A DNA stretch of 64,000 bases from Deltaproteobacteria bacterium (GCA_016210055.1 JACQUZ010000155.1:5633-69632); one strand, 5' to 3'; counted from the stretch's first letter, positions 56 to 55,923 are shown. The notes: a model not told the origin generated them from the letters alone. Translations and numbers: made by a program.

Positions 56-1075
56 ATGACGCGAATCGAGACCCCGCTCACGCGCCACGTGGGAACCGAG
101 GTTCCCATCATTTGCGGCGCCATGTACCCCTGCTCCAATCCCGAGCTCATCGCCGCTGTTTCCAAGGCTGGCGCGGTGGGCATTATCCAGCCCATCTCGA
201 TGAGCTTTGTCCACGGCGTGGACCTCCGCGCCGGGATCAGGCGGATCCGGGCCATCACCGACAAGCCCATCGGCTTCAACGCCATCGTCGAAAAGACCTC
301 GAAGATCTACGAGGAACGGATGCGCGCCTGGGTCGATATCGCGCTCGAAGAAGGGGTGCGCTTCTTCGTCACTGCCCTCGGCAAGCCACGGTGGGTGGTG
401 GAGAAAGTCCACGCCGCGGGGGGGATCGTTTACCACGACGTAACCGAACGCAGGTGGGCCGAGAGAGCCCTCGAAGAAGGCGTTGATGGGCTCATTTGCG
501 TCAACGACCGCGCCGGTGGGCATGCGGGCCGCCTCACGCCCCGCGCGCTCTACGAAAGCATGGCCGACCTCAAGGTGCCCCTCGTTTGCGCCGGAGGAAT
601 CGGCGACGAGCGCGCGTTCATCGAAGCCCTCTCCATGGGCTATGCGGGGGTCCAAATGGGGACGCGCTTCATTGCCACGACGGAGTGCAACGCGCATGAG
701 GACTACAAGCGCGCCATTGTCCAGGCACGCGCCGAGGACATTGTCCTCACCGAGAAGCTCTCCGGCGTCCCGGCGGCGGTGATCAAGACGAGGCACGTGG
801 AGCGGATGGGGACCAAGGCAGGCTTTGTTGCCAAGCGCCTGCTTCGCCACCCCAGGGCGAAGCACTGGATGCGCACGTACTACGCTGTCAAGTCGATTTG
901 GCAGCTAAAGCGGGCGTCAATCAAGGGCACGGCCTATAAGGATTACTTCCAGGCCGGCAAGAGCGTGGCAGGGATTCATGGGGTGGAGCCCGTGGGGGAG
1001 ATCATTCGCCGGTTCGCGAATGCCGCAAGTCAGGACAGGGCGCCCTGCGCAGAGAGGATTGGAGCAAGTCACTAG
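56..1075 (+). CDS. Nitronate monooxygenase / 2-nitropropane dioxygenase family (FabK-like) FMN oxidoreductase
   Basis: 339-aa ORF. NMO-family segments are present in the translation: PIICGAMYPCSNPELIAAVSKAGAVG near the N-terminus and CAGGIGDERAFIEALSMGYAGVQMGTRFIAT (FMN-binding region). The antisense ORF 26..865 is treated as a GC shadow. Confidence 0.85.
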   Translation: MTRIETPLTRHVGTEVPIICGAMYPCSNPELIAAVSKAGAVGIIQPISMSFVHGVDLRAGIRRIRAITDKPIGFNAIVEKTSKIYEERMRAWVDIALEEGVRFFVTALGKPRWVVEKVHAAGGIVYHDVTERRWAERALEEGVDGLICVNDRAGGHAGRLTPRALYESMADLKVPLVCAGGIGDERAFIEALSMGYAGVQMGTRFIATTECNAHEDYKRAIVQARAEDIVLTEKLSGVPAAVIKTRHVERMGTKAGFVAKRLLRHPRAKHWMRTYYAVKSIWQLKRASIKGTAYKDYFQAGKSVAGIHGVEPVGEIIRRFANAASQDRAPCAERIGASH

Positions 1076-1081
1076 CGCCGG

Positions 1082-1738
1082 TTAGTTGATCGCGTTGCCA
1101 ATGGCAGCGCCCACGCAGGCTCCGCAAACCACGGCTCCGGCAAAACTAGGGAACGTGGCGCAGGCACCAAGCGTCACCCACCAGGGGCAGTTCGGGATTT
1201 TCGAGGCAAATGACGAGCAGATCTGACCATCCTCGGTCGCTGTGCACATGTTCGTACCTAGATCGGCCAGGTTGCTGCCCAGGACCGGGTCGTTCAGGAC
1301 CGCCTGCAGGACCTCCATCTCGCGCGTGAGCTCGCGGGGGAACTCGCCGCTTAGCACCTCGACGCCAGCCTCGCTGAACCTGACCCGGACCTTCTCGACG
1401 GTCCCGACGATAACCGCCAGCTCTTGTCCTTCACGCCGCACCACGAGGGGTGCGTCCGAGCTATCGAGCTGGATAGAGGACTCCTGGGTCCCGGCCGACT
1501 CCACACCACGCACGGTCCCGATCTCGACGCCCGAGAAATCGCGCAAGTGGATAAACGTCTCGGCTCCCGCGTAGATTTCATAGCTCCCAATCCCCAGGGC
1601 CCTCGGCTTCTCACCAGAAGCCACGATGACCGACTGCTCTGTGGACGCGCCTTCCGTGGAAGGGGCCTGGTCGGAGGCACATCCCCCGAATGCGAACGCA
1701 GCGACCAACATCGAAGAGAGCGAGAGTAGCTTTTTCAT
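1082..1738 (-). CDS. Hypothetical lipoprotein with a Cys-rich, Gly/Ala-rich hydrophobic C-terminal tail
   Basis: The start is moved to the internal ATG (1738), giving MKKLLSLSSMLVAAFAFGGCASDQ, a signal peptide with a lipobox-like FGGC. The C-terminus is CTATEDGQICSSFASKIPNCPWWVTLGACATFPSFAGAVVCGACVGAAIGNAIN. I recognise no family. Confidence 0.6.
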   Translation of the reverse strand: MKKLLSLSSMLVAAFAFGGCASDQAPSTEGASTEQSVIVASGEKPRALGIGSYEIYAGAETFIHLRDFSGVEIGTVRGVESAGTQESSIQLDSSDAPLVVRREGQELAVIVGTVEKVRVRFSEAGVEVLSGEFPRELTREMEVLQAVLNDPVLGSNLADLGTNMCTATEDGQICSSFASKIPNCPWWVTLGACATFPSFAGAVVCGACVGAAIGNAIN

Positions 1739-2189: not shown

Positions 2190-3290
2190 TCAAATCCACC
2201 GCAGGTCCAGGTAAGGCCGCGCGGTGGCGGCGGCTCCAAGCGGTGGGGCTTCCGCCCACTCGAGGAGATCCACGTCGGAGACGAACGACTGGAAGGGAAT
2301 CCCTTTCATCGCCGGGCGCAATGGGTCATCCCCGGCAAAGCCCACGTGGATCATGTGGACCCCGGTCCCGAGGAGGTCGTCGTGGAGGACGGCCAGGAGG
2401 TCCCGCAGGATTGCTGGATCCCCGCTCGGTACAGCCACGCGCGTCGTGGTCACTGTGCGGAAGGATTCGCCAGGCCGTGGAAGGGGAGCCGAGCGCCGCA
2501 GCCAAAGGCGGGCTGCGCGGTGGGCCAAGCGAATCGCGTGTCCCCTGGGGGAGAAGCCGAGGACGGTGGTTCGGCGCACGGCGCCCGCGTCCCAGGCCCC
2601 CATGACCCCGACGAGCTCCGAACCCACGTGAGCGAGATAGAAATCCCCAACCGAGAACCCTGGAAGACGCCGGACGTCGTCCGAGAGATCCTCGTCGGTG
2701 CAAGCGGGCGCGAAGAGCCGCCCCTCGTAGGCACGGGCCATTAGCTTGGCCATGGCGGGGAGATCCTCCACTTGGGCACGCCGCACCTTGCAGCGCCTCG
2801 GCTCTCCCAGAGGGCGGAGCACGAGGACGTTCGCTGCTTCGAAGGCACACAACCTGCGGACTCGGATGCTCGGAATGGCCAACCGATCCATCACTTGCCT
2901 GGCCGACGTGTTCCCCCTCTTCACCAGGCAGAAGCCGAGGGCAAGCGACCGCGGATCCACGGCGATGGCATGGGCGGCAGCGCGTTCTGTGAACCTGTGC
3001 CCGCGCTCGCTAGGAAGTACCCGCGCGTCCCCGCCGTAATAGAACGCACCCCACCCGGCGCCTGTATAGCCTCGTGCCCACCCGAAAAGAAAATAGGCGC
3101 AAAGCTCATCGTCGCGAAATCCGCCGAGGTACAGGTGCCGATCAAACACGGCGTCGGGCCAGCCAAAGAAGCATGGGGCCCGATCGAAGAAGAAAGTGAA
3201 GTCCGCTCGGATCGGGCACGCGCGGTTGATCTCGCGCATTCTGCCCTCGAGGCTCCTATCAAGCAGCCTGATTGCGAGCGCATCCCTCAT
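2190..3290 (-). CDS. Putative GNAT-fold acyltransferase (two-lobed), function unknown
   Basis: 366-aa ORF whose ATG overlaps the stop of the upstream DUF3419 gene (3287..3290). It carries weak GNAT-like segments (FYLAHVGSELVGVMGAWD; PSERGHRFTERAAAHAI). The family assignment is tentative. Confidence 0.55.
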   Translation of the reverse strand: MRDALAIRLLDRSLEGRMREINRACPIRADFTFFFDRAPCFFGWPDAVFDRHLYLGGFRDDELCAYFLFGWARGYTGAGWGAFYYGGDARVLPSERGHRFTERAAAHAIAVDPRSLALGFCLVKRGNTSARQVMDRLAIPSIRVRRLCAFEAANVLVLRPLGEPRRCKVRRAQVEDLPAMAKLMARAYEGRLFAPACTDEDLSDDVRRLPGFSVGDFYLAHVGSELVGVMGAWDAGAVRRTTVLGFSPRGHAIRLAHRAARLWLRRSAPLPRPGESFRTVTTTRVAVPSGDPAILRDLLAVLHDDLLGTGVHMIHVGFAGDDPLRPAMKGIPFQSFVSDVDLLEWAEAPPLGAAATARPYLDLRWI

Positions 3291-4384
3291 GGGATACGAC
3301 GCCGCGCCACGCTGGCGGGCACCACCTGGTAAAAGGGGAAGCGGTCTCTTTGGGTCAGCTCACGACCAAGGGCATCATCCACGCACACCGTCTCGCGGAG
3401 GCGCTCGGGTAAAGGACGGTTCACGTGGATGTAACGCCACGCGACCCGCCCCCCGTCGGGCATGCGGGTGGCCACGGCGTCCAAGAGGTCACCCCACTGC
3501 TCCTGAGAAAGCCAGTCGGGAAGATTCGAAAGCTGGACCTTTTGGAATGTCCCGACGGGCTCGCGCTTGAGGCACTGGCCGATATCCTCGTGCCTGAGGT
3601 CCAAGCAACCAGGCCGCGCGCGGAGGGTCTCGACCCCCGCACGAGAAAGATAGAATGGGCACGCGTCGGCGCTCGTCAGGCGACCGAGGAGGGACAGCGC
3701 CAAGAGTGGGTTGTCGGAAGCCAAGTGCCCCGTGCACAGCTTGCGAAACTGCTCGAAGAACTGATCGCCGAGTGGGACCTGCGAGTCGCGGTACTTAAGC
3801 GACCTCGGGTCCATCCCACGCTTGCGAAACAGGCGAGGATGGAACACCAGGCGGAAGACGCGCCGCAAGGATGGACGGGCAATCTCGCGGTCGAAGTGAG
3901 CGCACTGCTCCTCGAGGGTGGAGGCACGAAAAAGGCCCTCGAGCCTGCGCGACCCCACGAGCGGGCCAAAAGCCCTTCGCACGAGGCCCATGTAGCGCTC
4001 GTACCGGCCCGCCCAAATGACCCCTTTCTTGACAGCACTCTCGTGGCGCGTCCAGAACGCGCGTGCATCGTCGGACACGAGCGGCAGGACCTGGCGAAGC
4101 TGCTTCTTCCTCGCGGCGCCGCTGCATGGCACGTATCCGAGAAACCGCAGGGCATCCTCACGCAAGAGCGCCCGCACCGCCGCGAGCTTGAGCTCGACGA
4201 GAAAGAGCTGGGGCTTGCTCGTGTCCACGGCGACCACCCGGCTCGCCCCGAGCGCGAGGAGCGAAAGGGGCATCTCCCCGGCGCTGGCCACGCACAGGAT
4301 GTGGTCGCGGTCGCACAGCTTGAGCGCCCGTGCCTCGGTGCGCTCGTCCTCCTGGGACAGTCCAAAGTTGTAAAGGGCGCTCAC
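3287..4384 (-). CDS. DUF3419 / BtaA-like protein (family of S-adenosylmethionine:diacylglycerol 3-amino-3-carboxypropyl transferase)
   Basis: 365 aa. The N-terminal block LYNFGLSQEDERTEARALKL...ILCVASAGEMPLSLLALGASRVVAVDTSKPQLFLVELKLAAVRAL matches the conserved DUF3419/BtaA N-terminus (a SAM-binding Rossmann-like motif followed by the LELKLAA helix). There are 4-nt overlaps with both neighbouring genes. Confidence 0.8.
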   Translation of the reverse strand: MSALYNFGLSQEDERTEARALKLCDRDHILCVASAGEMPLSLLALGASRVVAVDTSKPQLFLVELKLAAVRALLREDALRFLGYVPCSGAARKKQLRQVLPLVSDDARAFWTRHESAVKKGVIWAGRYERYMGLVRRAFGPLVGSRRLEGLFRASTLEEQCAHFDREIARPSLRRVFRLVFHPRLFRKRGMDPRSLKYRDSQVPLGDQFFEQFRKLCTGHLASDNPLLALSLLGRLTSADACPFYLSRAGVETLRARPGCLDLRHEDIGQCLKREPVGTFQKVQLSNLPDWLSQEQWGDLLDAVATRMPDGGRVAWRYIHVNRPLPERLRETVCVDDALGRELTQRDRFPFYQVVPASVARRRIP

Positions 4385-7300
4385 TCCTCCTTGGATACCA
4401 TGGAAGCCGCGGAGGCCCTAAACCCGCCCCCGCCCAGCGCGGCGTAGAACCCAAGCCGCTCCCCGAGCGCATCGAGGGCTGCCACGCTTTGCGGATCGAT
4501 GTCGCCGACGAGCCTCAGGTCACGCGTCTCCTCGGGCGCGAGGCCGAGCAGCATGACCTCGGCGGCGCAGCAGAACGTGCTCCCCTCTGGAGTGTGAGAG
4601 CTCACGACGAAATCCGGCGCAGAAGGAACCGCGACGGTGCCAGCAAAAGGAACTACCCGCACGTTCGGCATGCCTTGTACCAGCGGCGACACGGCGCTCG
4701 GGACCGAGACGTCGGCAATAAGGACCGGGTGCCCTGTGGCCAGGTGGTGTGGAAACACCAGGGGCTCATTGGTGCTCGTGGCCACGGTCACCACGTGGCA
4801 GGCGCGAAGCAGGTGCAAGTCCGTGCCCACCTGGACGTCAATGGCGCCGCCTGCCCCTCTGCCCACCTCGGAGAGCACCTGGTCTCTCAAGGCCGCGAGC
4901 CGCCGCTGGTCGCGGCCGAGGAGCACCACGCGGCCAGGCCGCGGCAAGCCCGTGACGAGCTTGTGCACGAGCGCAGACCCGATGTTCCCCGTGGCACCGA
5001 CGACGCCCAGCACCGCGTCGCCCACGGCCACGCCCATGCCCGCGCATGCGCCTTGCAGGCGACGGGCCGCTACCGCGACGGTGAAGCTGTTCCCCGACGT
5101 AATTCGCACCCCATCTGGTGGAAGCAACGCCAACCCATCGCGCGCGAGGATGCTCGTGTACCCGCCCAGCGCCACGTGACCGCAGCCGAGAGACGCAGCC
5201 AGGTTGACCGCGTCCTGGAGCCGCTCGGTCTCTAGGTAGCGGTAGTTGCGGCGGAGCCTTTCCTCCAAGAACGCAGCGTCGGCTGGAATAACGATGGATA
5301 CAAACCAGAGTCGCCCGCCGAACAGGTTTCGCGAGAAACCCAGGATGGGCTTGAGCTCGAGGAACGTGGTGAGCCTTTGGAATAGCGCCCGCAAGGCGCC
5401 CCGCCCCAGGGCGGCGAGGGACGGCTCGGCCATGGCGATTTCCCGCTCCGGCAGGGCGAAGTGCGAAATGAAGGCCACTCGCGCGGCGCCCTCGGCAGGT
5501 CGCTCCACCCGCCCCGAGAACCTTGGAAGCGCCTGCGCTGGGAAACGATCTTGCTCGGCGAGATCCTCGCGCGGAAGAATGCCGCGGAGCAAGACGCCCA
5601 GGTCACGGCGAACGAGCACATCGCAAAGTCCCCGGAGTGCGTTCACAAGCTGATCCTGCCCATGGCTATCGAGGAATGCGCTCGGTTGAATTCGAAGGGT
5701 GCTCGGCGCCGACAAGGTCGGCAGGATACGGACGTGATGCTCGTGAAGGAGGAACGCGGAAGCCACGGCCCCCAGGAGGTCATGCGTCTCGAGGGCCCGA
5801 AGAACCAGCGAGTCCTCGGTAGCCTTCGGTGCAAGCTTGATCCCGAGAAGAAGCCCCCGACCCGAGACCCGCTCGATCACGTCAGGGTATTCGTGCGCCA
5901 GGCCGACGAGCGCAGCCTTTAGCGCCTCGCCACGTTCCCTCGCCCTCCTGGGAATGTCCTCCCTTTCGATGACATCTAGCACCCGGCGCGCCACGCGGCA
6001 GGAAAACGGGTCGCCCCCAAAGGTCGACGAGTAGTGCTCGTCAAAGCGATCCAAGTAGCGGCTCCGCTCCACGAGCAGCGCCGAGATCTTGGCCGCACCT
6101 CCCCCGAGCGCCTTGCCAAAAAGATAGTAATGCCCACGCACCCCCTCGGAGGCGAGGAAGGTCCCCACCCGGCCGAGGCCGCTCTGGATCTCATCCAAAA
6201 TGAGCGGGAACTCGTACCCGCCGAGCCTTGCGAGCAGGCGAGGATCGATCTCGGTCACCCCGCCCTCCCCCTGGATGGGTTCGGCGATCGCCGCCACGAC
6301 ATTCACGAAGGAGAGCGTTCCCAAGGCCGCGCCATGACCACGTGGAACGAGGATGGGCACGCAGGCCGTGTACTCGCAAACAAGGGCGTCGAGGTCAATC
6401 TCCCCGCTCCTCGGCACGAACCGGGTCTCGATCCCCATGAGGCTCTCGTAGGGCGCCCGCTTGCGCGCATTTCCCAAGACGGCCCTTGCTCCCAAGGAAT
6501 GGCCATGAAACGCCCCTTCCAAGGCAATGAGCGCCAGCCTCGACGCCCCCAGGATCCGCTCGGCCTCCGCCAGGCAGTGCGAGACGAGCTCGGGCTGGGC
6601 GCCCCCAAAACGCCGCTTCTGGTCTCGGGCGATCCTCCGCCAGCGCTCGTTTCGCTCGAGCGCCGCGTGGGAGATGGCCATCTCCACCGCCTCCGACCCG
6701 GTTGAACCGAAACGCACGACGTAGGCTTGTCCGGTGGTCTCCGCGACCTTCAGGGCGAGCTTCCTGGCCAGCTCGCCCTGCTCGGGACGCGCAGCCCCTT
6801 GGTCCCAGAAAAGAACCGAGTCGTCTTCCAGGGCCGCGGATGCCGCTTCTCGCACGGCCTCATGCGAATGGCCGAGCAAGTTGCCACCGAAGCCACCGAC
6901 GGCGTCGAGGACCTCGATCGGACGACTACCGTCGAGAAAAACGAGGCGATCCCCCTTTCCCGACACGTAGTGCTTGTCCATGCGCGTCGAGCGAAGAAGC
7001 GCCCCACGGCGTGGGCTCGCGAGCCGCACGTGGGTGGGCTGGAAGAAATGCTCTTCAGGCAAGAGCACGATGCCTGCACGCTTGGAGTAGGGCCCGCACA
7101 GGTTCGCGAGCAATGGGCCATAACGCCTATCAATCTCACTTCGGACGACCGACCCTTTTCGCGTGCGGGGAACCTGGTCGCGAACGCAGGCGAACCGCTT
7201 GATCGTGAGGTGGCGAAACTCGAATTCCTCGAGGGAATCCAGGAAATGCTCGTGCCTGGCCTCGAGCTGGCCTTGCACTGATGAAAGGATCGCCCGGGCG

Positions 7301-8856
7301 GTCACGAGGCATCCCGCCTCGGGCGCATGCTCGCCCAAGAGAAACACCAGGGCCGCAAGCCCTGGCTCCTCGCGCAGCGGGAAGCACTCCACATGAGCGA
7401 CGGGCGGCATGAGCCCCCCGTACAGCTCCTCCAAGCGGCCTCGCGATACCTTGACGCCAAAGCTGTCCTTGACGAAGTCCCCCTTCGCCCGGGCAAAGTA
7501 CTTGAGCCCCGCCTTCGACTTCACGACGAGATCGCCCGTATCCATGAATCCACCGGGGCCCGGGAAGTTCCCGCCCTGAGCGGCGCTATCTTCGTGGGCA
7601 AGATAGCCGAGCGAGGCGAATGGAGATCGGGCCCACAAGCGAAACACGCCCTCACCTTGGGAGGGTTCTGGCGCGAGTCCCAGCTCCACCCCGGGAAGCG
7701 GCGACCCGAGACTCCCAGGCTCGTGGGGACCTCCGACAAGCGTGCAGGCGATCATCTGAGTCTCGGTAGTGCCAAGCGCGTTTTCCAAGGGGAGGCCGAG
7801 GGCGACGTGGAGCCGCTTGGCCAAGCTTCCGTCGTAGGGCGCACCATTCGAGACAAGGCACTTGAGATCCTGGAAGCAGGTCTCCTTGAGCTGGGGGAAG
7901 ACCCGCGCGAGCTCGAGGAGCGCGCGATACGTGGCAGGACCAGCGAGCACGTGCTCTGGCCGCATCTCGAGAAGCAGGTCACGCACCCGACCAGGATGCT
8001 CGATCACTCTCTCGGGAGTCAGGAGGCACAAGGGCTTGCGCGTCCACAGCGCATTCCAGAGCGCGCGCACGCCCATGGAATGACCGAGGAGGAGGCTCAG
8101 ACCACGGTTTCCGAGTCGATCTTCACCGAGAAGCCCGGCCGCCTCCCAGCTCGCCGCGCTGCGAAGAAACGCCCCTTGTGCATAGCGAACGAGCCTCGCG
8201 CGGCCGGACGTCCCCGAGGTCGTCAGGAGCAATGCCTCCGTCTCGGCCGAAGTCGCTCCCATGAGGGTGGCAATGAGCGGATCGCTCGCGGGCGGGCTCT
8301 CCTCGTGCGTCTCGACAGCCCGTGCTCCCAGGTTCAAGTCCCCCTGCAAGCAAAGGGCAGGGATGCCGAGCGTGCGAGCCATGGCACGCAGGCGCCCAAG
8401 AAGCGCAAGATCTGCCTCGTGCTTCACGAGGTCTTCCACCTCGTGAGCATTCCAAAGAAGGAGCTTGCTTCCCGACGCCTTGAGCCAGGCTTCGAGGCGG
8501 TCGCACTCGATGTACATGGGAAGGAATACCCGCACCCCCCACGCAGAGAGCGCCACGAGCGACAAGGCGACGAGCGTTTCACTCGTGCGTGGCAGCCTGA
8601 GGACGCACACCGTGTCTCCCGGCTTCACTCCGCGGCGCGAAAGATCGGCAATGAGGCCAAGCGTCGCGTGCCGAAGTGCACGCAGGGATACACGCACGCC
8701 CCCCTCGTCAATGGTGCCCATGATGACGGGCTCAGCATCTGACCCGCCATCCGCGCGACCGAACAAAAGGTCGGCGAAATTCTGGAACCTGAGCAAGCAA
8801 GGCGCCGCGCCACCGGGCGACCGGATCACTTCGAACACCTCTAGAGAACGCGGCAT
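4381..8856 (-). CDS. Three-domain fusion enzyme: AMP-dependent acyl ligase + class-III (PLP) aminotransferase + acyl-ACP-reductase (AAR)-like NAD(P) domain
   Basis: 1491 aa. N-terminal third: AMP-binding core motif LLLTTSGTSGRARLV and a later GDLV...KG adenylation-type segment. Middle: class-III aminotransferase motifs (GSTGSEAVEMAI, LILDEIQSGLGRVG, FGKALGGGAAKIS with the PLP Lys). C-terminal about 340 aa align by eye with cyanobacterial acyl-ACP reductase: VAFISHF vs FGLIGHL, ALGGYTSIL vs ALGGFTSII, ITSGNSFTVAV vs FTTGNTHTAYV, VVGATGNIGSALV vs VVGATGDIGSAV, FCCAAEVMLL vs FACFAEAMLL (catalytic Cys). No phosphopantetheine carrier motif was noticed. Confidence 0.85.
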   Translation of the reverse strand: MPRSLEVFEVIRSPGGAAPCLLRFQNFADLLFGRADGGSDAEPVIMGTIDEGGVRVSLRALRHATLGLIADLSRRGVKPGDTVCVLRLPRTSETLVALSLVALSAWGVRVFLPMYIECDRLEAWLKASGSKLLLWNAHEVEDLVKHEADLALLGRLRAMARTLGIPALCLQGDLNLGARAVETHEESPPASDPLIATLMGATSAETEALLLTTSGTSGRARLVRYAQGAFLRSAASWEAAGLLGEDRLGNRGLSLLLGHSMGVRALWNALWTRKPLCLLTPERVIEHPGRVRDLLLEMRPEHVLAGPATYRALLELARVFPQLKETCFQDLKCLVSNGAPYDGSLAKRLHVALGLPLENALGTTETQMIACTLVGGPHEPGSLGSPLPGVELGLAPEPSQGEGVFRLWARSPFASLGYLAHEDSAAQGGNFPGPGGFMDTGDLVVKSKAGLKYFARAKGDFVKDSFGVKVSRGRLEELYGGLMPPVAHVECFPLREEPGLAALVFLLGEHAPEAGCLVTARAILSSVQGQLEARHEHFLDSLEEFEFRHLTIKRFACVRDQVPRTRKGSVVRSEIDRRYGPLLANLCGPYSKRAGIVLLPEEHFFQPTHVRLASPRRGALLRSTRMDKHYVSGKGDRLVFLDGSRPIEVLDAVGGFGGNLLGHSHEAVREAASAALEDDSVLFWDQGAARPEQGELARKLALKVAETTGQAYVVRFGSTGSEAVEMAISHAALERNERWRRIARDQKRRFGGAQPELVSHCLAEAERILGASRLALIALEGAFHGHSLGARAVLGNARKRAPYESLMGIETRFVPRSGEIDLDALVCEYTACVPILVPRGHGAALGTLSFVNVVAAIAEPIQGEGGVTEIDPRLLARLGGYEFPLILDEIQSGLGRVGTFLASEGVRGHYYLFGKALGGGAAKISALLVERSRYLDRFDEHYSSTFGGDPFSCRVARRVLDVIEREDIPRRARERGEALKAALVGLAHEYPDVIERVSGRGLLLGIKLAPKATEDSLVLRALETHDLLGAVASAFLLHEHHVRILPTLSAPSTLRIQPSAFLDSHGQDQLVNALRGLCDVLVRRDLGVLLRGILPREDLAEQDRFPAQALPRFSGRVERPAEGAARVAFISHFALPEREIAMAEPSLAALGRGALRALFQRLTTFLELKPILGFSRNLFGGRLWFVSIVIPADAAFLEERLRRNYRYLETERLQDAVNLAASLGCGHVALGGYTSILARDGLALLPPDGVRITSGNSFTVAVAARRLQGACAGMGVAVGDAVLGVVGATGNIGSALVHKLVTGLPRPGRVVLLGRDQRRLAALRDQVLSEVGRGAGGAIDVQVGTDLHLLRACHVVTVATSTNEPLVFPHHLATGHPVLIADVSVPSAVSPLVQGMPNVRVVPFAGTVAVPSAPDFVVSSHTPEGSTFCCAAEVMLLGLAPEETRDLRLVGDIDPQSVAALDALGERLGFYAALGGGGFRASAASMVSKEE

Positions 8857-8955: not shown

Positions 8956-9612
8956 ATGCCCACAACCGACCGCGCCTTCATTCCGGCCGCCCGATTCCAT
9001 TGGCTCACGCCGGTCTATGATTCACTTTGCCGCTTGCTCGGGCTGGGCGCCGCGCTGCGGGACTTCGAGCTCGAACTCCTCGAGTCCGTCGAGGCATCTG
9101 ACATTCTCGAGGTGGGTTGCGGTACGGGTGAGCTCCTCCTTCGAGTAGCCCGGCGGTTTCCGTCAGCCCGAGTGGTCGGTATCGACCCCGACCCGCGCGC
9201 ACTCCGGATTGCGGCCAAGAAGCTTCCTCCCGAGCGCGACATCCGATTGGTCAAGGGGCGTGCCGAGTCCCTCGAGTTCCCAGACCATTCATTCGACCTG
9301 GTGCTGTCGAGCCTCATGCTCCACCACCTCGACACCGAGAGTAAGATCGCCGCTCTGAGGGAATGGAAGCGGGTCTTGAGGCCTGGCGGTCAAATCGTCC
9401 TGGTTGACCTTGGGGAGCCGCGCTCCCTGACTACCAAGGTTCTTCTCTACCCGCTGCGGTTCAACCTCTTCGAAAAACAGGCCGACAACTTGAGGGGTAA
9501 GATACCGTCGTTCATCCAGCAGGTGGGCCTCGCGCTTTCCGAGGCGGCCGTATTCCGCTCTGCCGTGGTGGCCTACCGCGCTTGGCTGCCGGGGACGCCG
9601 CCGAGAGCGTAG
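8956..9612 (+). CDS. Class I SAM-dependent methyltransferase (UbiE/COQ5-like)
   Basis: 218 aa. SAM motif I is ILEVGCGTGELLL, followed by an acidic post-I residue (VVGIDPD) and a downstream LRPGGQIVLVD motif. It is transcribed divergently from the 4381..8856 operon across a roughly 100-bp gap. Confidence 0.85.
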   Translation: MPTTDRAFIPAARFHWLTPVYDSLCRLLGLGAALRDFELELLESVEASDILEVGCGTGELLLRVARRFPSARVVGIDPDPRALRIAAKKLPPERDIRLVKGRAESLEFPDHSFDLVLSSLMLHHLDTESKIAALREWKRVLRPGGQIVLVDLGEPRSLTTKVLLYPLRFNLFEKQADNLRGKIPSFIQQVGLALSEAAVFRSAVVAYRAWLPGTPPRA

Positions 9613-9716: not shown

Positions 9717-9752
9717 GCGACCCCAGCGGGATTCGAACCCGCGTCACCAACG
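9717..9752. repeat. 36-nt direct repeat, copy 2 (inside the intact tRNA-Glu)
   Basis: Identical to 9637..9672. Confidence 0.9.
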
Positions 9753-9791
9753 TGAAAGGCTGGTGTCCTAGGCCGACTGGACGATGGGGTC
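9718..9791 (-). tRNA. tRNA-Glu (anticodon UUC)
   Basis: Manual cloverleaf on the minus strand: GACCCCA TC GTCC AGTCGGCCTA GGAC A CCAGC CTTTCAC GTTGG TGAC GCGGG TTCGAAT CCCGC TGGGGTC G. 74 nt, CCA not encoded. It closely resembles bacterial tRNA-Glu. Confidence 0.9.
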
Positions 9792-9823
9792 TTAAGTGAT
9801 TTCTTCTACCAAACTTTTCGCCG

Positions 9824-9896
9824 TGAGCCCAGCAGGGATCGAACCTGCGACCAACGGGTTAAAAGCCCGCTGCTCTACCGGCTGAGCTATGGGCTC
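9824..9896 (-). tRNA. tRNA-Lys (anticodon UUU)
   Basis: Manual cloverleaf on the minus strand: GAGCCCA TA GCTC AGCCGGTA GAGC A GCGGG CTTTTAA CCCGT TGGTC GCAGG TTCGATC CCTGC TGGGCTC A. 73 nt. Confidence 0.9.
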
Positions 9897-26897: not shown

Positions 26898-27887
26898 CGT
26901 TGCGACGACGGGTAGCGTCGCTACCGTGTGCAGGCCCGGTGGCGAAGCGGCGACGATGGGAATGGCGTTCAGCACGGCGCCGACGGTCGCCCGGTCCCCT
27001 TGGAAGCCTCCCTGCACGACGACTTCCAGCGGTGGATCACCTTCCACCCACACCTGGTCACGCGGCGCCTCCGCACCCACGTACATTTCGAGGACGAGCT
27101 CCACCACCGGCTGTTCACCGTGGGTAACCCATGCGACCTGCTTCACGCCCAACACGCGGCCTTGGGTTACTCCCGCGGCATCCACTTGGGCGATCACCGG
27201 CTCGATCGTCTCCTCTACGCCGGAGAACGGAAGCCCCAGCCCACTCGCAAGGAGCGCAGCCGACTCGGCAAGCCCTACGTGGCCAAGCCGCCCTTGTGAA
27301 ACCCCCTGTCGGAACTCATCTGGAGAGAGCCCTGCCCCGACCTTGGCCCGGAGCGGCCCACGACGCTTCGCAGCGTCCACCACGCGGTGCACCCGCACCT
27401 TGTCCACGCGCACGCACGCCGACGTAATGACGAGTGGCAGGCGATCCATGACCATTCCAGGGTTCACCCCAGTGCCGAGAACCACTACGCCTCGTTCCCG
27501 CGCACGCTTGTCCAAGGACCGCGCGATCTCCGCATGCCTCTGCCAGGGAAACGCAAGCTCCTCGCAGGTCGACACGACGTGCAACCCTACATCGACAGCC
27601 TGCTCCAGCTGGGGCGCCACTTGGTCGAGTCGTGACCCGGTGCACACCACCGCGACGTCCTCATGTCCACGGCTTCCCTGGGTACGGGCATAGAGCTCTC
27701 GCGCCTCCCCTACGACAAGGTCGCCACGGGGCGGCATTCCGAGGAGTATCCCCAGGTCAGCCCCCACTTTTCCAGGCATGGGATCCGCTGCCCCGAGGAG
27801 GTTCATGTCTGACCGCGTGAGGATTGCCTTGCCCACCTCAATGCCGATGGGGCCCAAGCCTAATAGGAAAACGCGCGCGTGCGTCAC
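26880..27887 (-). CDS. DapB-N-like NAD(P)-dependent oxidoreductase (amine dehydrogenase / dihydrodipicolinate reductase-like family)
   Basis: 335 aa. N-terminal Rossmann motif VFLLGLGPIGIEVG. The overall layout resembles the 2,4-diaminopentanoate dehydrogenase-like family. There is a 4-nt overlap with the upstream gene. Confidence 0.65.
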   Translation of the reverse strand: MTHARVFLLGLGPIGIEVGKAILTRSDMNLLGAADPMPGKVGADLGILLGMPPRGDLVVGEARELYARTQGSRGHEDVAVVCTGSRLDQVAPQLEQAVDVGLHVVSTCEELAFPWQRHAEIARSLDKRARERGVVVLGTGVNPGMVMDRLPLVITSACVRVDKVRVHRVVDAAKRRGPLRAKVGAGLSPDEFRQGVSQGRLGHVGLAESAALLASGLGLPFSGVEETIEPVIAQVDAAGVTQGRVLGVKQVAWVTHGEQPVVELVLEMYVGAEAPRDQVWVEGDPPLEVVVQGGFQGDRATVGAVLNAIPIVAASPPGLHTVATLPVVATLPVVR

Positions 27888-30271
27888 GGCCGCCCGTCGC
27901 TGCGGCTGCTCGCGGCAGTCGCCTCGGCAAGGATCCGATCCAGCATCGCCGCCACGTCGAGGGCTGAGCGGCCAAGCGCCTGGTCGCGTGCCGAGCGCAG
28001 CCTGTCTACCACCTCGTCGACTTGCTTGCGGGCTCGCGCCAGCTCGCTATCGGTGGGGACAGGCTCGGGGATCTTCTTCGCCTCGACGAGAAGCGCCCGC
28101 AACCCGTCCTCGAGCGCCACCAGCCTGAGCTCCTCCTCACGCATTCCGGCGTCCAGGATGCGAACGAGCTCGTCGATTTCATCGACGCGTGCCAGCGCCC
28201 GCGTGCCGTCGACACGTGGATGATCGGCCTCCCGCCTCGCCGCCAGCGCTTGCTCGGCCGAAGTTACCGCGTCCCGTGCGACTCGAAGCTCGGACTCCTT
28301 CTCGGCGAGCGAGCCGCGGAGCTTTGCGAGCTCTTCTTCGCGCTCGACATCTTTTCGAGCGACCACCTCCTTGAGCTCGGCGGCCTGCTTCTCGAGCTCC
28401 TTTCGCTCCCTCTCCGTGCGGATGACCTCATCACGAACCGACACGAGCTTCTTCGAGGCCTCTTCCATCGCGCGAGTCAGCGCCACCTGGGCCGCCTGCC
28501 TCTGGGCGCGCGCGTTCTCCACGGCCTGCTCACGCGCGGTCTCGGCCTCCCTCTGCATCTCACCGATCTTGCGCCACAGCTCGTTGGTCTTGCTTTCGGC
28601 TTCTTTCCAGCGTGCCGCAGCCTTTTCTGCCGCCGTGGTTTTTTCGGCGACAGAAGCCTCCAGCTCGGCGATCCGTGAGACCTGGGCGGGGTCTGGTCCC
28701 ACCACTCGCTCACCTCGGAGCCTGAGCACCTCCCCTTCGGCTCGGGCTGCTCGGGAGCGTAGCTCTCGCAGCTCCTTTTCCAGGGAGCTGGCCGTGGCGG
28801 CACGGCGTTTCTCGGCCACGGCTGTCTCGGCGACAGCTTGCTGGGCCCGGGCCAGCTCGTCCCGAAGCTCGTCGATATATGCGTCTCGTTCCTCGATCTC
28901 TGCCCTCGACTCGCGCATCGAGTGCTCGTGCTTGAGTGCCGCTTCGGCGACGAGCTCCGCGGCTTCCTGACCTTTCGGCGCAGGCGGCGCCACGGCCCAT
29001 TCACCCTCTGCTCGGCAGAGCTTCCCCTGGAGCTCGCCCACCTGCCATGAAGTCGCCTGGAGGTCGGCGGAGAGGCTCAGGATCTCGGCCTCCCGCTCGC
29101 GCAAGAGAAGCTTGGTCCTTGAAAGCTCCACGCCATCGCTTTCCGGAGGCAGGGACGGCTCTACCTGAGCCTGCGTCGCCGACACGTTCCGGATGTTCAC
29201 AGCCTCGGCGAGCTTATCCGTGAGCTGTTCCACGACCTTGGTAAGCCGGCGGATCTCCTTCGAGGACTGCTCGCTGACCCGTTTCTTCTCTGCCTCGGCT
29301 TCACTTGCGCTCGTACGCAGTTGCTTGGCCTCGATTTCTGTCTTCGAGCGTAGCTCCTCCGCACGTGCAAGCTTCTGGCGCAAGTCCTCGAGCTTCTGGG
29401 CGTGGGAAGCGCGCGCAGTATCGAGCTCGCGCTCGAGCTCGCCGGCTTTCTTGGACGCGCAAGAAGCCTCCGCTTCTGCCTCGACTAGGCGCGACTTTAG
29501 GTCCTCGGCCACAGGGACCGGATCCGGACCGGAAGGCAAGAGAGCGCTCTTCGGATCGCCAATCACGTCAGTGAACAGGAGCTGGGTTCCCTCCCGAACT
29601 GGAAGCTGAACCACCATGAAGCCGCGTTTTCCCGGCGCCCGCCCTGCTACGACCACGTACTGCAAGACGTGGTCGTCGTCAGAACCGTCCGCGGGGAGAA
29701 GCGTCGCGTCTAGGTCTACATCGGGAACCTCGTTGACCTGATCCGAAAACTCCGCCAGGGAGATGCCCACAAAAGGCGAAACTCCGACGAGACGCACTTG
29801 ACCAAAAAGCGGCGAAACGCGGGCGATGACATCCTCGGAGACCCCCGCCTGTTCGGATGGCGTGCTTCCCCGCGCCACCGCCAAGAGGAGAACGCCATCC
29901 TTCTTGAGAACCCGGCGGACCTCCTGGAGGTAATGGGGGTTGCTCAGAAACAGGTTCCCTTCCGGGATGCACGCAACGTCAAAAATGCCCTCGTCCAATC
30001 CCAAGGACCCGAATTCCGCCGCGCGAAAGCCCAGGTTGCGCAGCCTGTGCCTGCGTCTCGCGACGTCGATCAGCTTGGGCGACGAATCGACTCCAAGGAC
30101 CGTGCGTGCACCGTTTTGCGCCAGGAAGCGTGCACCGTGCCCTTCGCCGCAGCCGAGCTCGATGGCCTTTCGTCCACTCCAGGCATCTTCGAGGTACACG
30201 TAGGTGGGGAGACGCCGAAACTTGCTGGTGTCGCGAGAATCCATCGAACCTCCGGTGGGACCTAAGCTCAC
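27884..30271 (-). CDS. Class I SAM methyltransferase domain fused to a roughly 550-aa coiled-coil region
   Basis: 795 aa. The N-terminal region carries methyltransferase motifs (AIELGCGEGHGARFL; VLGVDSS; LKKDGVLLLAV). The rest is highly charged Glu/Ala/Arg/Lys/Leu heptad-like sequence running to the C-terminus. Confidence 0.75.
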   Translation of the reverse strand: MSLGPTGGSMDSRDTSKFRRLPTYVYLEDAWSGRKAIELGCGEGHGARFLAQNGARTVLGVDSSPKLIDVARRRHRLRNLGFRAAEFGSLGLDEGIFDVACIPEGNLFLSNPHYLQEVRRVLKKDGVLLLAVARGSTPSEQAGVSEDVIARVSPLFGQVRLVGVSPFVGISLAEFSDQVNEVPDVDLDATLLPADGSDDDHVLQYVVVAGRAPGKRGFMVVQLPVREGTQLLFTDVIGDPKSALLPSGPDPVPVAEDLKSRLVEAEAEASCASKKAGELERELDTARASHAQKLEDLRQKLARAEELRSKTEIEAKQLRTSASEAEAEKKRVSEQSSKEIRRLTKVVEQLTDKLAEAVNIRNVSATQAQVEPSLPPESDGVELSRTKLLLREREAEILSLSADLQATSWQVGELQGKLCRAEGEWAVAPPAPKGQEAAELVAEAALKHEHSMRESRAEIEERDAYIDELRDELARAQQAVAETAVAEKRRAATASSLEKELRELRSRAARAEGEVLRLRGERVVGPDPAQVSRIAELEASVAEKTTAAEKAAARWKEAESKTNELWRKIGEMQREAETAREQAVENARAQRQAAQVALTRAMEEASKKLVSVRDEVIRTERERKELEKQAAELKEVVARKDVEREEELAKLRGSLAEKESELRVARDAVTSAEQALAARREADHPRVDGTRALARVDEIDELVRILDAGMREEELRLVALEDGLRALLVEAKKIPEPVPTDSELARARKQVDEVVDRLRSARDQALGRSALDVAAMLDRILAEATAASSRSDGRP

Positions 30272-48605: not shown

Positions 48606-48884
48606 ATGCACGAGGACAGTGTGATCACCTATCGACAGAATCCCCGGACCGCGGGGCGCGTAGTAGACGGATTGGCGTTTGTCGTCACCCCGGACGACAA
48701 CAAGCTTCACACCCTGAATGGCACGGGCGCGCTGATTTGGCAGCTTGCTGAGAATGGCTGCACCCTTGACGAGATCGTTTCGGCGATAACCAGTCGCTAT
48801 TCGGTAGAACCCGAGCGCGCCCGGCAGGATGCCGAGACGTTTGCGACCGACCTCCTCAGGCGCCGCATCTTGGAGACGCCATGA
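48606..48884 (+). CDS. PqqD-family protein (RiPP recognition element / peptide chaperone)
   Basis: 92 aa. Has the PqqD pattern: beta-strands (AGRVVDGLAFVVTPDDNKLHTLNGTGALIW) followed by helices (CTLDEIVSAITSRYSV...ARQDAETFATDLLRRRIL). Confidence 0.85.
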   Translation: MHEDSVITYRQNPRTAGRVVDGLAFVVTPDDNKLHTLNGTGALIWQLAENGCTLDEIVSAITSRYSVEPERARQDAETFATDLLRRRILETP

Positions 48885-50092: not shown

Positions 50093-50138
50093 TCGGCAGC
50101 CCAAACGCTGGCTGTAAAGGGAATAGGGGGAGTTGAAC

Positions 50139-55874: not shown

Positions 55875-55923
55875 GCCCCACCCCCATGTTCGTGCCATGC
55901 CAGGTACAGAGCGTCGAGTGGGC

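Follow-up and report, generated by a model that had tools for sequence, protein, structure and literature searches.

The window, a stretch of 64,000 nucleotides from a Deltaproteobacteria bacterium, carries a gene in which an adenylate-forming (ANL) ligase, a class-III aminotransferase (TA) and a thioester reductase (TR) resembling acyl-ACP reductase (AAR) are joined in one chain lacking an ACP, a new and uncharacterised combination of a ligase with a TamH-like module. The protein is probably a single-polypeptide equivalent of the TamA/TamH acid-to-amine cascade, and its operon is proposed to make a non-phosphorus amphiphile with an alkylamine backbone.

The open reading frame fills its interval on the minus strand exactly, from an ATG start (Table 1). 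An NCBI record with the identical protein, from a “Deltaproteobacteria bacterium” MAG, has class-III aminotransferase as its sole annotation. The three-domain order is common to 113 full-length homologues with 33-56% identity, which places the architecture far beyond chance, and the family is spread over Myxococcota/Polyangia, Bacteroidota-like and other lineages. The catalytic residues of the fusion (A10 Lys567, PLP Lys915 and Cys1430) were found to be kept in a first set of 15 and then in 110 full-length homologues.

Table 1. Coordinates of the fusion gene, its domains and the adjoining genes in the window
Feature	Position	Strand	Basis
Fusion gene for 1491 aa, with ANL, class-III aminotransferase and AAR-like thioester reductase domains	4381..8856	-	ORF and translation, Pfam and NCBIfam
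ANL (adenylate-forming) domain including C-terminal subdomain, aa ~1-600	7057..8856	-	PF00501
Class-III omega-aminotransferase domain, aa ~601-1090	5587..7056	-	PF00202
AAR-like thioester reductase domain, aa ~1091-1491	4384..5586	-	PDB AAR, TIGR04058, AF2 and Foldseek
DUF3419 / BtaA-like protein, 365 aa	3287..4384	-	PF11899 1.8e-52
Tandem-GNAT acyltransferase, 366 aa	2190..3290	-	homologues PF00583, AF2 fold
Small class-I SAM methyltransferase, 218 aa, divergently transcribed	8956..9612	+	Methyltransf_25/11/23

The N-terminal domain matches the Pfam AMP-binding family (PF00501) over aa 51-419 (1.6e-23; 83.6 bits vs a cut-off of 29.9). Members of the ANL superfamily are recognised by an A3 P-loop, (T/S)(T/S)G(T/S)(T/S)GxPK, an A5 GxTE, an A7 (T/S)GD, an A8 hinge, Rx(D/K)xxxxxG, and the A10 Lys; here we find TTSGTSG at 212-218, GTTE at 362-365, D442, R456/D460/K463/G467/K469 and Lys567 (codon 7156-7158), residues that are invariant or nearly so across 110 homologues, with Lys567 fully invariant. 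As judged by these motifs, the domain is a member of the ANL adenylate-forming superfamily, although its clade is set apart from generic ANLs and is rare, a search of 1.84 billion proteins giving 76 representatives at E<=1e-30. Its top PDB match is the malonyl-CoA ligase MatB (2.6e-9), and the others include oxalate-CoA ligase and FadD5, all of them CoA ligases with weak E-values. Structures of FAALs, a subclass marked by an insertion blocking the CoA-thioester conformation and by closest similarity to FadD32/FadD28-type enzymes, were absent from the PDB matches even at E<=10. That the substrate is a “fatty” acid is something we infer, because the ligase domain is too divergent for substrate assignment; with only malonyl- and oxalyl-CoA ligases, at weak E-values, as the closest enzymes of known structure, a non-fatty substrate such as an N-acyl amino acid or a dicarboxylate may also be considered.

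The central domain matches Aminotran_3 (PF00202) over aa 630-1048 (1.1e-44; 153 bits vs a cut-off of 30.5), and its top PDB match is CrmG (7.5e-59), which acts as an aminotransferase on an aldehyde intermediate in caerulomycin biosynthesis. Class-III aminotransferases are fold-type I PLP enzymes in which a Lys forms the Schiff base and an Asp binds the pyridine N, and both residues can be recognised, as Lys915 (codon 6112-6114), invariant in 110 of 110 homologues, and as Asp888 (codon 6193-6195), which lies within DEIQSGLGR and is invariant too (DEIQxGLGR); the domain is thus a predicted class-III (omega) aminotransferase.

The C-terminal 392 aa match cyanobacterial AAR in the PDB (6jzu/6jzq; E 2e-13) and the NCBIfam model TIGR04058 AcACP_reductase (4e-14); they also match PigE in its N-terminal reductase region (5.6e-16), and Pfam yields a sub-threshold Shikimate_DH match at aa 1283-1402. 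The AAR family is defined by a Rossmann GxxGxxG, by the catalytic Cys294, set between the pockets for nucleotide and acyl group, and by the AAR fold. Here, the Rossmann motif GATGNIG occupies 1287-1293 and is invariant among homologues, while FCCAAEVMLL (aa 1428-1437) pairs with FACFAEAMLL of AAR, so that Cys1430 (codon 4567-4569; invariant in 109/109) falls on AAR Cys294. An AlphaFold (AF2) model of the domain (pLDDT 86) found AAR 6jzy as its best Foldseek match (E 1.3e-18; TM 0.76, normalised to AAR), whereas shikimate dehydrogenases reached a TM of only 0.3-0.45. Sequence and modelled fold both show the domain to be AAR-like and, together with the catalytic Cys, rule out a Cys-less fold of shikimate or GluTR type. 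Its score with TIGR04058, 52.7 bits vs an equivalog cut-off of 449.7, marks it as a distant relative of AAR, as opposed to a true orthologue partnering ADO; no ADO gene was found among the called neighbours of the window and related loci.

The sequence-only reading had placed a ligase, a class-III aminotransferase and an AAR-like domain with its Cys in CAAEVM on one polypeptide. The ORF and the Pfam and NCBIfam calls agree with it, as do the alignment of Cys1430 and the fold, and no catalytic residue proved to be degenerate, Lys567, Lys915 and Cys1430 being invariant among homologues (n=110). All computationally accessible parts of that reading are thus supported, and the sequence-level outcomes that it had named as refuting did not occur.

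That reading had also seen no phosphopantetheine motif, and none emerged from wider searches: Pfam gave no PP-binding match in the fusion at E<=1, PF00550 was present in 0 of 115 homologues and was not found in the called neighbours of the examined loci, phmmer detected no AcpP-like segment in 110 full-length homologues, neither interdomain linker contains an invariant Ser, and a tblastn search with AcpP over about 40 related loci, which would miss divergent ACPs, returned no match. Transfer of the acyl group would proceed via CoA, via an ACP in trans, or directly from acyl-AMP to Cys. The fusion need not be self-contained: PtTamH, which is NADH-specific, refuses C12-CoA and requires acyl-ACP (PMC9594044), so that the fusion may depend on CoA or on a housekeeping ACP in trans, and the same property weakens a simple CoA route. 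We give about the same weight to acyl-CoA formed with free CoA and to a direct reaction of Cys1430 with the acyl-adenylate, and less to a housekeeping ACP loaded in trans.

Judging from the gene overlaps, the fusion is translationally coupled to the DUF3419 and tandem-GNAT genes: the GTG start of DUF3419 overlaps the TGA stop of the fusion (GTGA), its Shine-Dalgarno AAGGAGGA sits within the last codons of the fusion, and the GNAT ATG overlaps the DUF3419 stop (ATGA), both overlaps being 4 nt long. This conserved DUF3419/BtaA-like and tandem-GNAT operon was absent from the sequence-only reading. The DUF3419 protein covers the PF11899 profile essentially in full (positions 10-378 of 385; 179.3 bits vs a cut-off of 28.2); no NCBIfam model matched it, and no solved structure was found. 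At 1.8e-52, it scores far under Rhodobacter sphaeroides BtaA itself, which matches DUF3419 at 2e-106 and the partner of which, BtaB, matches Methyltransf_23 (PMC6642084). The GNAT copy in the window has no Pfam match, PF00583 being matched by 13 of 18 GNAT homologues, and its AF2 model (pLDDT 93.5) finds N-myristoyltransferases (TM ~0.6) and the tandem GNAT MAB_4324 as the best PDB folds.

DUF3419 is the next gene downstream of the fusion in all but one of 35 informative loci (34), and 29 of about 31 loci informative for the tandem GNAT have it together with the fusion; one full-length homologue, from Fuerstiella, has neither gene nearby. Depending on the lineage, a PS-decarboxylase-like enzyme, a MacB-type (MacB/FtsX) ABC exporter, or an alpha/beta-hydrolase with a sulfotransferase is often present near the fusion. 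Gene order is rearranged in some loci (GNAT-PSD-fusion-DUF3419), and there are split versions with a stand-alone ANL adjoining DUF3419 and GNAT, as expected of a functional module. The stand-alone ANL variant adjoins a serine-palmitoyltransferase-like alpha-oxoamine synthase, and a Desulfobacterales locus contains the TA-TR and DUF3419 module with PPDK/PEP-utiliser-type enzymes and no ANL, indicating that the acid-activation step is interchangeable. The methyltransferase at 8956..9612 has no counterpart beside the fusion in any other locus examined, and may be an accessory gene in this genome only. It could possibly act as a head-group N-methylase, because BtaB also matches Methyltransf_23; synteny gives no support to such a role. 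In the window, the operon is flanked by genes with housekeeping functions, namely tRNAs, 5-FTHF cyclo-ligase, RNase Y and TyrRS.

By analogy with the experimentally studied TamH, PigE and AAR, we infer a reaction sequence in which the N-terminal ANL domain would adenylate a carboxylic acid with ATP, most likely a medium- or long-chain fatty acid, possibly hydroxylated; the acyl group would be bound as a thioester to Cys1430 in the C-terminal domain and would be reduced to the aldehyde by NAD(P)H; and the central PLP domain, which probably builds the dimer core, as in the TamH model, would transaminate the aldehyde to a primary amine with an amino-acid donor. BtaA, to our knowledge the one characterised member of its family, is a SAM:diacylglycerol 3-amino-3-carboxypropyl transferase, and the roles of the DUF3419 and GNAT proteins in the operon are extrapolated from the families to which they belong. 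With a BtaA-like DUF3419 protein and a tandem-GNAT N-acyltransferase encoded in translational coupling to the fusion, the amine would be an intermediate and not the end product. The activity of BtaA and the coupled operon neighbours are our grounds for proposing an alkylamine-backbone non-phosphorus amphiphile, for example, an N-(3-amino-3-carboxypropyl)alkylamine that would then be N-acylated and, in some lineages, decarboxylated. The lipid-type families seen as neighbours (BtaA-type, NMT-like tandem GNAT, PS-decarboxylase, MacB/FtsX exporters and SPT-like synthase) suggest an undescribed amine-based lipid pathway, with the fusion as its first enzyme. A bolder version, which is conceivable but doubtful, is a carrier-independent acid-to-amine machine in which the AAR-type Cys directly captures the acyl-adenylate without CoA or phosphopantetheine, and the operon makes undescribed phosphorus-free alkylamine lipids of the membrane or surface in Myxococcota, Bacteroidota and relatives. 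Direct capture has analogues in the attack of GluTR on Glu-tRNA, and in that of ASADH and ProA on acyl-phosphates.

The same chemistry could operate on another carboxylate, such as a GNAT-made N-acyl amino acid or a dicarboxylic or small polar acid, yielding a diamine/polyamine-type or other small metabolite modified by the DUF3419 protein. The nearest solved relatives of the ANL domain, malonyl-CoA and oxalate-CoA ligases, would fit such a substrate, as would the lack of any FAAL or long-chain acyl-CoA synthetase among the high-ranking matches, the isolation of the ANL clade from generic ANLs, and the Desulfobacterales locus in which PPDK/PEP-utiliser-type enzymes replace the ANL. We nevertheless regard it as unlikely, given that the neighbours, from the BtaA-like, PS-decarboxylase-like and SPT-like enzymes to the MacB exporter and NMT-like GNAT, are of lipid type.

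The second-best fold matches of the C-terminal domain are the carmabin TAD structures (9e56, E ~4e-16), which raises the question of whether the acyl group might be kept on Cys1430 and supplied with nitrogen there, to give a primary amide with no aldehyde release. TADs are AAR-related domains proposed to amidate, with an invariant Cys and an NAD site as in AAR; built as a didomain whose NTD is of the macrodomain type, they form the C-terminus of an NRPS module, after the PCP (bioRxiv 10.1101/2024.10.28.620694). However, AAR is the better match (22-24% vs 16% identity), the present domain has no NRPS or PCP context and falls outside the TADs, the fused CrmG/TamH-type omega-transaminase needs an aldehyde acceptor, and TamH, which is also TA-TR, gave aldehyde and amine (PMC9594044), making amide formation very improbable. 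It is harder still to believe that the fusion is an ordinary TamH/PigE-type tail builder of a pyrrole-alkaloid (tambjamine/prodiginine-like) or other secondary-metabolite cluster with incidental neighbours, even though TamH and PigE are the sole characterised TA/TR fusions and PigE is the top NCBIfam model for our protein. With that model, the protein scores 187 bits vs a cut-off of 850, and neither the surroundings of the window gene nor any of about 40 related loci contain pig, tam, PKS or NRPS genes. What accompanies the fusion almost without exception, in translational coupling, is DUF3419 with the tandem GNAT, and the window operon is flanked by housekeeping genes.

The preferred reading, a fused TamA/TamH-type cascade, takes its model from the tambjamine YP1 tail of Pseudoalteromonas tunicata, for which PtTamA (ANL-ACP) and PtTamH (TA-TR) convert a C12 acid via a detected aldehyde into the C12 amine; in PtTamH, the TA is followed by a linker of ~50 aa and an AAR-like TR with GxxGxxG and the catalytic Cys887 (PMC9594044). 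The fusion has the same TA-TR arrangement, its TA at aa ~612-1070 and its TR at aa ~1120-1491 being joined by ~50 aa, and the activated acyl group, which an ANL enzyme provides to TamH, would come from the ANL domain here. Unlike in TamA/TamH, its ANL comes from a separate, rare clade and is placed in cis at the N-terminus of the TA-TR, without an ACP in the protein, homologues or loci; and whereas the TamH locus is a bipyrrole BGC, the fusion belongs to a DUF3419 and GNAT operon. PigE, from the MAP branch of prodigiosin synthesis, is a fusion with Cys296 for which an acid-to-amine order has been argued, with a 3-acetyloctanoyl thioester as substrate, the cyclisation of which follows the transamination (PMC8341465). 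PigE (PDB 4ppm) likewise combines an AAR-like reductase and a class-III aminotransferase in one chain, and both of these halves of our fusion match the PigE model and structure, but its order is reversed (TR-TA), and it lacks an ANL domain. The succession from acid to acyl-AMP, aldehyde and amine, as put forward in the sequence-only reading, was shown experimentally for the homologous TamA and TamH (PMC9594044) and argued for PigE (PMC8341465). That reading had not taken these precedents into account, and they make the chemistry less novel than it implied; what is uncharacterised is the tri-domain, ACP-less fusion alone.

AAR (6jzu/6jzy, TIGR04058) remains the best sequence and fold match of the C-terminal domain, in which the Rossmann motif and Cys are kept; unlike this domain, it is a stand-alone 340-aa enzyme passing its aldehyde to ADO for alkanes. 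CARs (A-PCP-R) adenylate an acid with ATP and reduce the enzyme-bound thioester to an aldehyde with NAD(P)H, for which they need a phosphopantetheinylated PCP, and their R domain is of the SDR type. Adenylation, reduction to the aldehyde and transamination would liken the fusion to a CAR combined with an omega-transaminase, but it has neither a PCP nor an SDR-type R, the reductase being AAR-type with a predicted covalent Cys intermediate, and the transaminase being built in. A CAR identity was rejected, as neither PP-binding nor NAD_binding_4 gave a match at E<=1; CARs, which contain an adenylation domain, are classed as NRPS-like (PMC11606446). The operon also recalls BtaA/BtaB of DGTS betaine-lipid synthesis in R. 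sphaeroides, in that the same Pfam family is found downstream and a Methyltransf_23/25-type methyltransferase adjoins in the window, although the window DUF3419 has a GNAT and an amine-forming enzyme as its coupled partners, and no link with diacylglycerol metabolism. What is new here, in comparison with all of these systems, is a ligase fused to a TamH-like module without an ACP, together with its genetic context.

The sequence-only reading had proposed a single polypeptide combining an acyl-adenylate (ANL) ligase, a class-III aminotransferase (TA) and an acyl-ACP reductase (AAR)-like thioester reductase (TR), and one open reading frame does carry all three, with matches in Pfam, among PDB sequences and in NCBIfam. 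A "Deltaproteobacteria bacterium" MAG contains an identical protein, encoded beside the gene with locus tag HY698_18550 and annotated solely as "aminotransferase class III-fold PLP-dependent enzyme". Pfam places AMP-binding at aa 51-419 (1.6e-23) and Aminotran_3 at aa 630-1048 (1.1e-44). The aminotransferase domain is nearest to CrmG (7.5e-59), an aminotransferase of caerulomycin biosynthesis which we take to act on an aldehyde intermediate. CrmG also serves as a structural comparator in the TamH paper (PMC9594044).

The C-terminal 392 residues match the cyanobacterial acyl-ACP reductase (6jzu/6jzq, E 2e-13), and in the alignment FCCAAEVMLL of the fusion pairs with FACFAEAMLL of AAR, so that Cys1430 takes the position of the AAR catalytic Cys294, as had been claimed from the CAAEVM motif. 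In NCBIfam, this part is matched by the reductase half of PigE (5.6e-16), by TIGR04058 AcACP_reductase (4e-14) and by glutamyl-tRNA reductase (GluTR, 7.5e-3). Because of a sub-threshold Pfam match to Shikimate_DH (PF01488, aa 1283-1402, 9.4e-5), a shikimate dehydrogenase or GluTR identity was weighed; it was rejected, as the AAR and PigE models fit better by more than 10 orders of magnitude, in agreement with the fold search. The AlphaFold2 model of aa 1091-1491 (pLDDT 86.4) has AAR 6jzy as its top structural match (E 1.3e-18, TM 0.76 normalised to AAR), while shikimate dehydrogenases reach a TM of only 0.3-0.45 and structures of the AAR-related terminal amidation domain (TAD) come second. The C-terminal domain is therefore AAR-like and has the catalytic Cys, contrary to what would have refuted the sequence-only reading.

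Genes and tRNAs around the fusion (window coordinates) and diagnostic residues of its three domains (fusion aa; counts from full-length homologues)
Feature	Position	Strand or orientation	Description
NMO/FabK-like flavoprotein	56-1075	+	PF03060, 1.3e-41
ORF, 230 aa	1082-1774	-	no family match
Tandem GNAT	2190-3290	same strand as fusion, downstream	366 aa; window copy without its own Pfam match
DUF3419 protein	3287-4384	same strand as fusion, downstream	PF11899, 1.8e-52, full length
Fusion ORF	4381..8856	-	1491 aa, ATG start, translation without interruption
Class-I methyltransferase	8956-9612	divergent from fusion	218 aa, BtaB-like in family terms
tRNA-Glu(UUC) and tRNA-Lys(UUU)	9717-9896	-	just beyond divergent methyltransferase
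ANL P-loop (A3), TTSGTSG	212-218		conserved
ANL A5, GTTE	362-365		conserved
ANL A7	D442		110/110
ANL A8	R456 / G467		110/110
ANL A10 catalytic Lys	Lys567		110/110
Aminotransferase DEIQxGLGR	Asp888 / Gln891		109/110 and 110/110
PLP Schiff-base Lys	Lys915		110/110
Rossmann motif, GATGNIG	1287-1293		109/109
AAR-type catalytic Cys	Cys1430		109/109

Conservation was read from a 15-sequence alignment and from a MAFFT alignment of 110 full-length homologues. The diagnostic residues of all three domains are conserved among these homologues, with no sign of a degenerate domain. The adjoining Cys1429 varies (C/S/A/G), and Cys1430 is therefore singled out as the catalytic residue.

No phosphopantetheine motif had been noticed in the fusion, and the searches bear this out. 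Pfam yields no PP-binding domain at E<=1, no Ser is invariant in either of the linkers between domains in the 15-sequence alignment, and PF00550 does not occur among the precomputed Pfam assignments of 115 homologues. With an E. coli AcpP query, in searches blind to divergent ACPs, phmmer found no significant AcpP-like segment in 110 homologues and tblastn no AcpP-like gene in about 60 related loci; nor is there an ACP gene among the called neighbors in seven annotated loci. When the ANL domain was run by phmmer exhaustively against 1.84 billion representative proteins, a small and isolated clade emerged, with 76 representatives at E<=1e-30 followed by a drop to generic ANLs. It consists mostly of 1350-1560-aa fusions, with some stand-alone ligases of 570-634 aa, and no member recovered in that search looks like an ANL-ACP of roughly 700 aa.

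The fusion overlaps the DUF3419 gene, and the latter the tandem GNAT gene, by 4 nt (GTGA and ATGA), and the fusion's closing codons, AAG GAG GAG, double as a perfect Shine-Dalgarno sequence for the DUF3419 start. The DUF3419 family includes BtaA, which in betaine-lipid synthesis acts as SAM:diacylglycerol 3-amino-3-carboxypropyl transferase; the R. sphaeroides protein matches the family at 2e-106 (PMC6642084). PF00583 is found in 13 of 18 homologues of the tandem GNAT, the AlphaFold model of which (pLDDT 93.5) resembles N-myristoyltransferases (TM ~0.6) as well as MAB_4324, a tandem-repeat GNAT. A genome scan by full-length alignment with generic aminotransferase motifs returned mostly unrelated aminotransferases, and of its loci only L001 and L002 held full-length fusions. 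Synteny was therefore assessed by tblastn in 51 metagenomic loci retrieved with an ANL-clade-specific motif, together with loci from other look-ups. DUF3419 lies directly 3′ of the fusion in 34 of the 35 loci extending far enough, and 29 of about 31 informative loci also encode the tandem GNAT, which follows DUF3419 or else lies upstream of the fusion, at the head of the series GNAT, phosphatidylserine (PS)-decarboxylase-like, fusion, DUF3419 (L093-L095, L099, L100). Recurrent additions are the PS-decarboxylase-family gene (the same five loci and L086), a MacB-type FtsX and ABC pair (L082, L084, L117, L118, L123), and an alpha/beta-hydrolase and sulfotransferase pair (L087, L121, L131).

The sole full-length exception to synteny, L002 (Fuerstiella sp. 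MAG JABABI010000087.1, 8001-12302), is a tri-domain homologue with 30-41% identity by domain, which has neither DUF3419 nor the tandem GNAT within 3.5 kb downstream or 8 kb upstream. Other loci carry the parts in separate form. L139 has the order DUF3419, tandem GNAT, stand-alone ANL, and in L133 (metagenome contig Ga0209668_10008989, 516-4629) an unfused ANL of 600 aa from the same clade directly precedes DUF3419 and is accompanied by a divergently paired BioF/Kbl/serine-palmitoyltransferase-like alpha-oxoamine synthase (TIGR01825, 2e-119; SPT-CFB model, 3e-114), which may represent an alternative long-chain amine route into the same DUF3419 step. L003 (Desulfobacterales MAG CALLDL010000047.1, 5293-17617) encodes a two-domain TA-TR protein of 985 aa, whose gene seems to share an operon with those for two PPDK_N/PEP-utiliser "swivelling-His" enzymes, a UbiA-family prenyltransferase, DUF3419, a 394-aa protein without assigned family, and a PS-decarboxylase-like protein. 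The PPDK/PEP-utiliser-type enzymes stand in place of the ANL, and such a phosphotransfer-type enzyme may replace it as the acid activator, in which case the reductase could take an acyl-phosphate. In L129 (metagenome contig Ga0118677_10004619, 9389-14918), an ANL-TA protein of 1111 aa without a reductase domain precedes a 683-aa protein without Pfam or NCBIfam match, and no DUF3419 or GNAT was detected downstream; this locus may use a different reductase or may have decayed. Module parts are spread over Myxococcota/Polyangia, Bacteroidota (Crocinitomicaceae) and others. Since the same parts occur fused, split and reshuffled across lineages, there is strong evidence that the fusion, DUF3419, GNAT and their companions constitute one functional module.

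The divergent methyltransferase was considered as a conserved BtaB-like partner and rejected, having no counterpart in other loci; as it occurs in the window only, it is listed as a possible accessory, non-core gene. The two tRNA genes form the upstream boundary of the locus and are followed by housekeeping genes (5-FTHF cyclo-ligase, RNase Y, TyrRS). Just past the 3′ side of the operon lie the flavoprotein gene and the 230-aa ORF, neither of them kept beside the fusion elsewhere, and the ORF, matching no family, was dismissed as an operon member. Farther away, the window contains a gene for a 795-aa protein (27884-30271, minus strand) with a class-I methyltransferase domain at aa ~33-134 and about 650 residues without Pfam match, and a radical-SAM/SPASM maturase-type gene (403 aa) directly 5′ of that for a 1363-aa FG-GAP-repeat protein (48881-54224, plus strand). 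The layout at 54897-59300 (plus strand) resembles a MoxR-type gene set, unrelated to the fusion: a 325-aa ORF (54897-55874), a DUF58 protein (55858-57060) and a TgpA-type transglutaminase (57060-59300; TgpA_N, Transglut_core and DUF4129).

Computation shows which domains are present and in what order, that their active sites are intact, that the reductase has the AAR fold, that a carrier is absent, and that the genes are linked as an operon; onto this, homology to TamH, PigE and AAR allows a reaction sequence to be projected. The ANL domain would adenylate a carboxylic acid, the acyl group would pass to a thioester on Cys1430, NAD(P)H would reduce the thioester to an aldehyde, and the PLP domain would transaminate the aldehyde to a primary amine. 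We infer a medium- or long-chain fatty acid as the substrate because of the lipid-type neighbors and the TR/TA relatives, and not because of the ANL domain, for which malonyl- and oxalyl-CoA ligases are the nearest relatives of solved structure, with weak E-values; PDB similarity of this kind does not support a substrate assignment. These relatives could be taken to suggest a non-fatty acid, which the neighbors and TR/TA relatives make rather unlikely. A TAD-like amidation role for the reductase domain, for which the second-best fold matches might speak, is far less probable, given the aldehyde type of the fused transaminase and the TamH experiments. Least credible is an incidental enzyme of a tam/pig pigment pathway, a context that the synteny of the loci led us to reject.

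If the fusion does convert a fatty acid to its amine, the BtaA-like enzyme might move the aminocarboxypropyl group from SAM onto the amine or a chain hydroxyl, the tandem GNAT might add an acyl group, the PS-decarboxylase-like enzyme of some lineages might trim a carboxylate, and the MacB-type pumps are possible exporters. Tentatively, the product could be an alkylamine-based, phosphorus-free amphiphile, a suggestion that we regard as speculative.

The architecture poses the mechanistic question of how the acyl-adenylate gets to the AAR-type cysteine. Free CoA might serve to form an acyl-CoA, as AAR can take acyl-CoA besides acyl-ACP; a thioester would likewise be needed by the alpha-oxoamine synthase that neighbors the stand-alone ANL, but the rejection of acyl-CoA by TamH would, by analogy, argue against this path. 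Alternatively, Cys1430 might attack the acyl-adenylate directly, in the manner of GluTR on Glu-tRNA or ASADH/ProA on acyl-phosphates, and the phosphotransfer-type activators in place of the ANL in L003 hint that TR can accept non-pantetheine acyl donors. As a third option, the acyl group might be loaded in trans onto a housekeeping ACP.

In several phyla the fusion is coupled, almost without exception, with a BtaA-family enzyme and an N-acyltransferase, which suggests an unrecognised nitrogen-containing lipid with a backbone of amine instead of glycerol, and the frequent PS-decarboxylase-like and MacB-exporter neighbors point in the same direction. The operon points towards an amine-based lipid pathway, so far undescribed, in bacteria that are for the most part uncultured. 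Lipids of this kind could have a part in membrane remodelling (e.g. phosphorus sparing) or in the surface chemistry of uncultured bacteria of soil and sediment. The fusion family is at present annotated as "aminotransferase class III" alone.

To our knowledge, no natural conversion of fatty acids to fatty amines has been characterised except that by TamA and TamH, which requires two proteins and a phosphopantetheinylated ACP; a single carrier-less chain would, if our reading is true, be a simpler catalyst. PtTamH has an N-terminal class-III transaminase, about 50 residues, and a C-terminal AAR-like thioester reductase with GxxGxxG and Cys887; with PtTamA (ANL-ACP), it converts C12 acid to C12 amine with detection of the aldehyde, is NADH-specific, and does not accept C12-CoA (PMC9594044). 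In PigE the order is reversed, TR-TA, with Cys296 (PMC8341465), and in a Streptomyces tambjamine pathway separate proteins do the equivalent job (bioRxiv 10.1101/2025.08.11.669332). In comparison, the fusion places a TamA-type ligase ahead of a TamH-like module and lacks the ACP of TamA, and it is not an orthologue of any of these proteins; it scores 187 bits with the PigE model (cut-off 850) and 52.7 bits with the AAR model (cut-off 449.7). The chemistry of the acid-to-amine assembly line proposed from the sequence is thus precedented by TamA and TamH, but the proposal had missed the precedents for its TA-TR part. It had cited no characterised enzyme of this build, and in the literature searched we likewise found neither such an enzyme nor a description of the tri-domain fusion or of a DUF3419-linked amine lipid. 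Papers of 2021-2022 had already described the core chemistry and the TA-TR module, so that the fusion is not categorically new, and the TamH/PigE precedent lessens the surprise, while the operon context adds a testable question. The new elements are the tri-domain, ACP-less architecture, kept in >100 sequence clusters with its active sites intact, the isolation of the ANL clade, and an operon in which a BtaA-family enzyme and a tandem GNAT almost always accompany the fusion.
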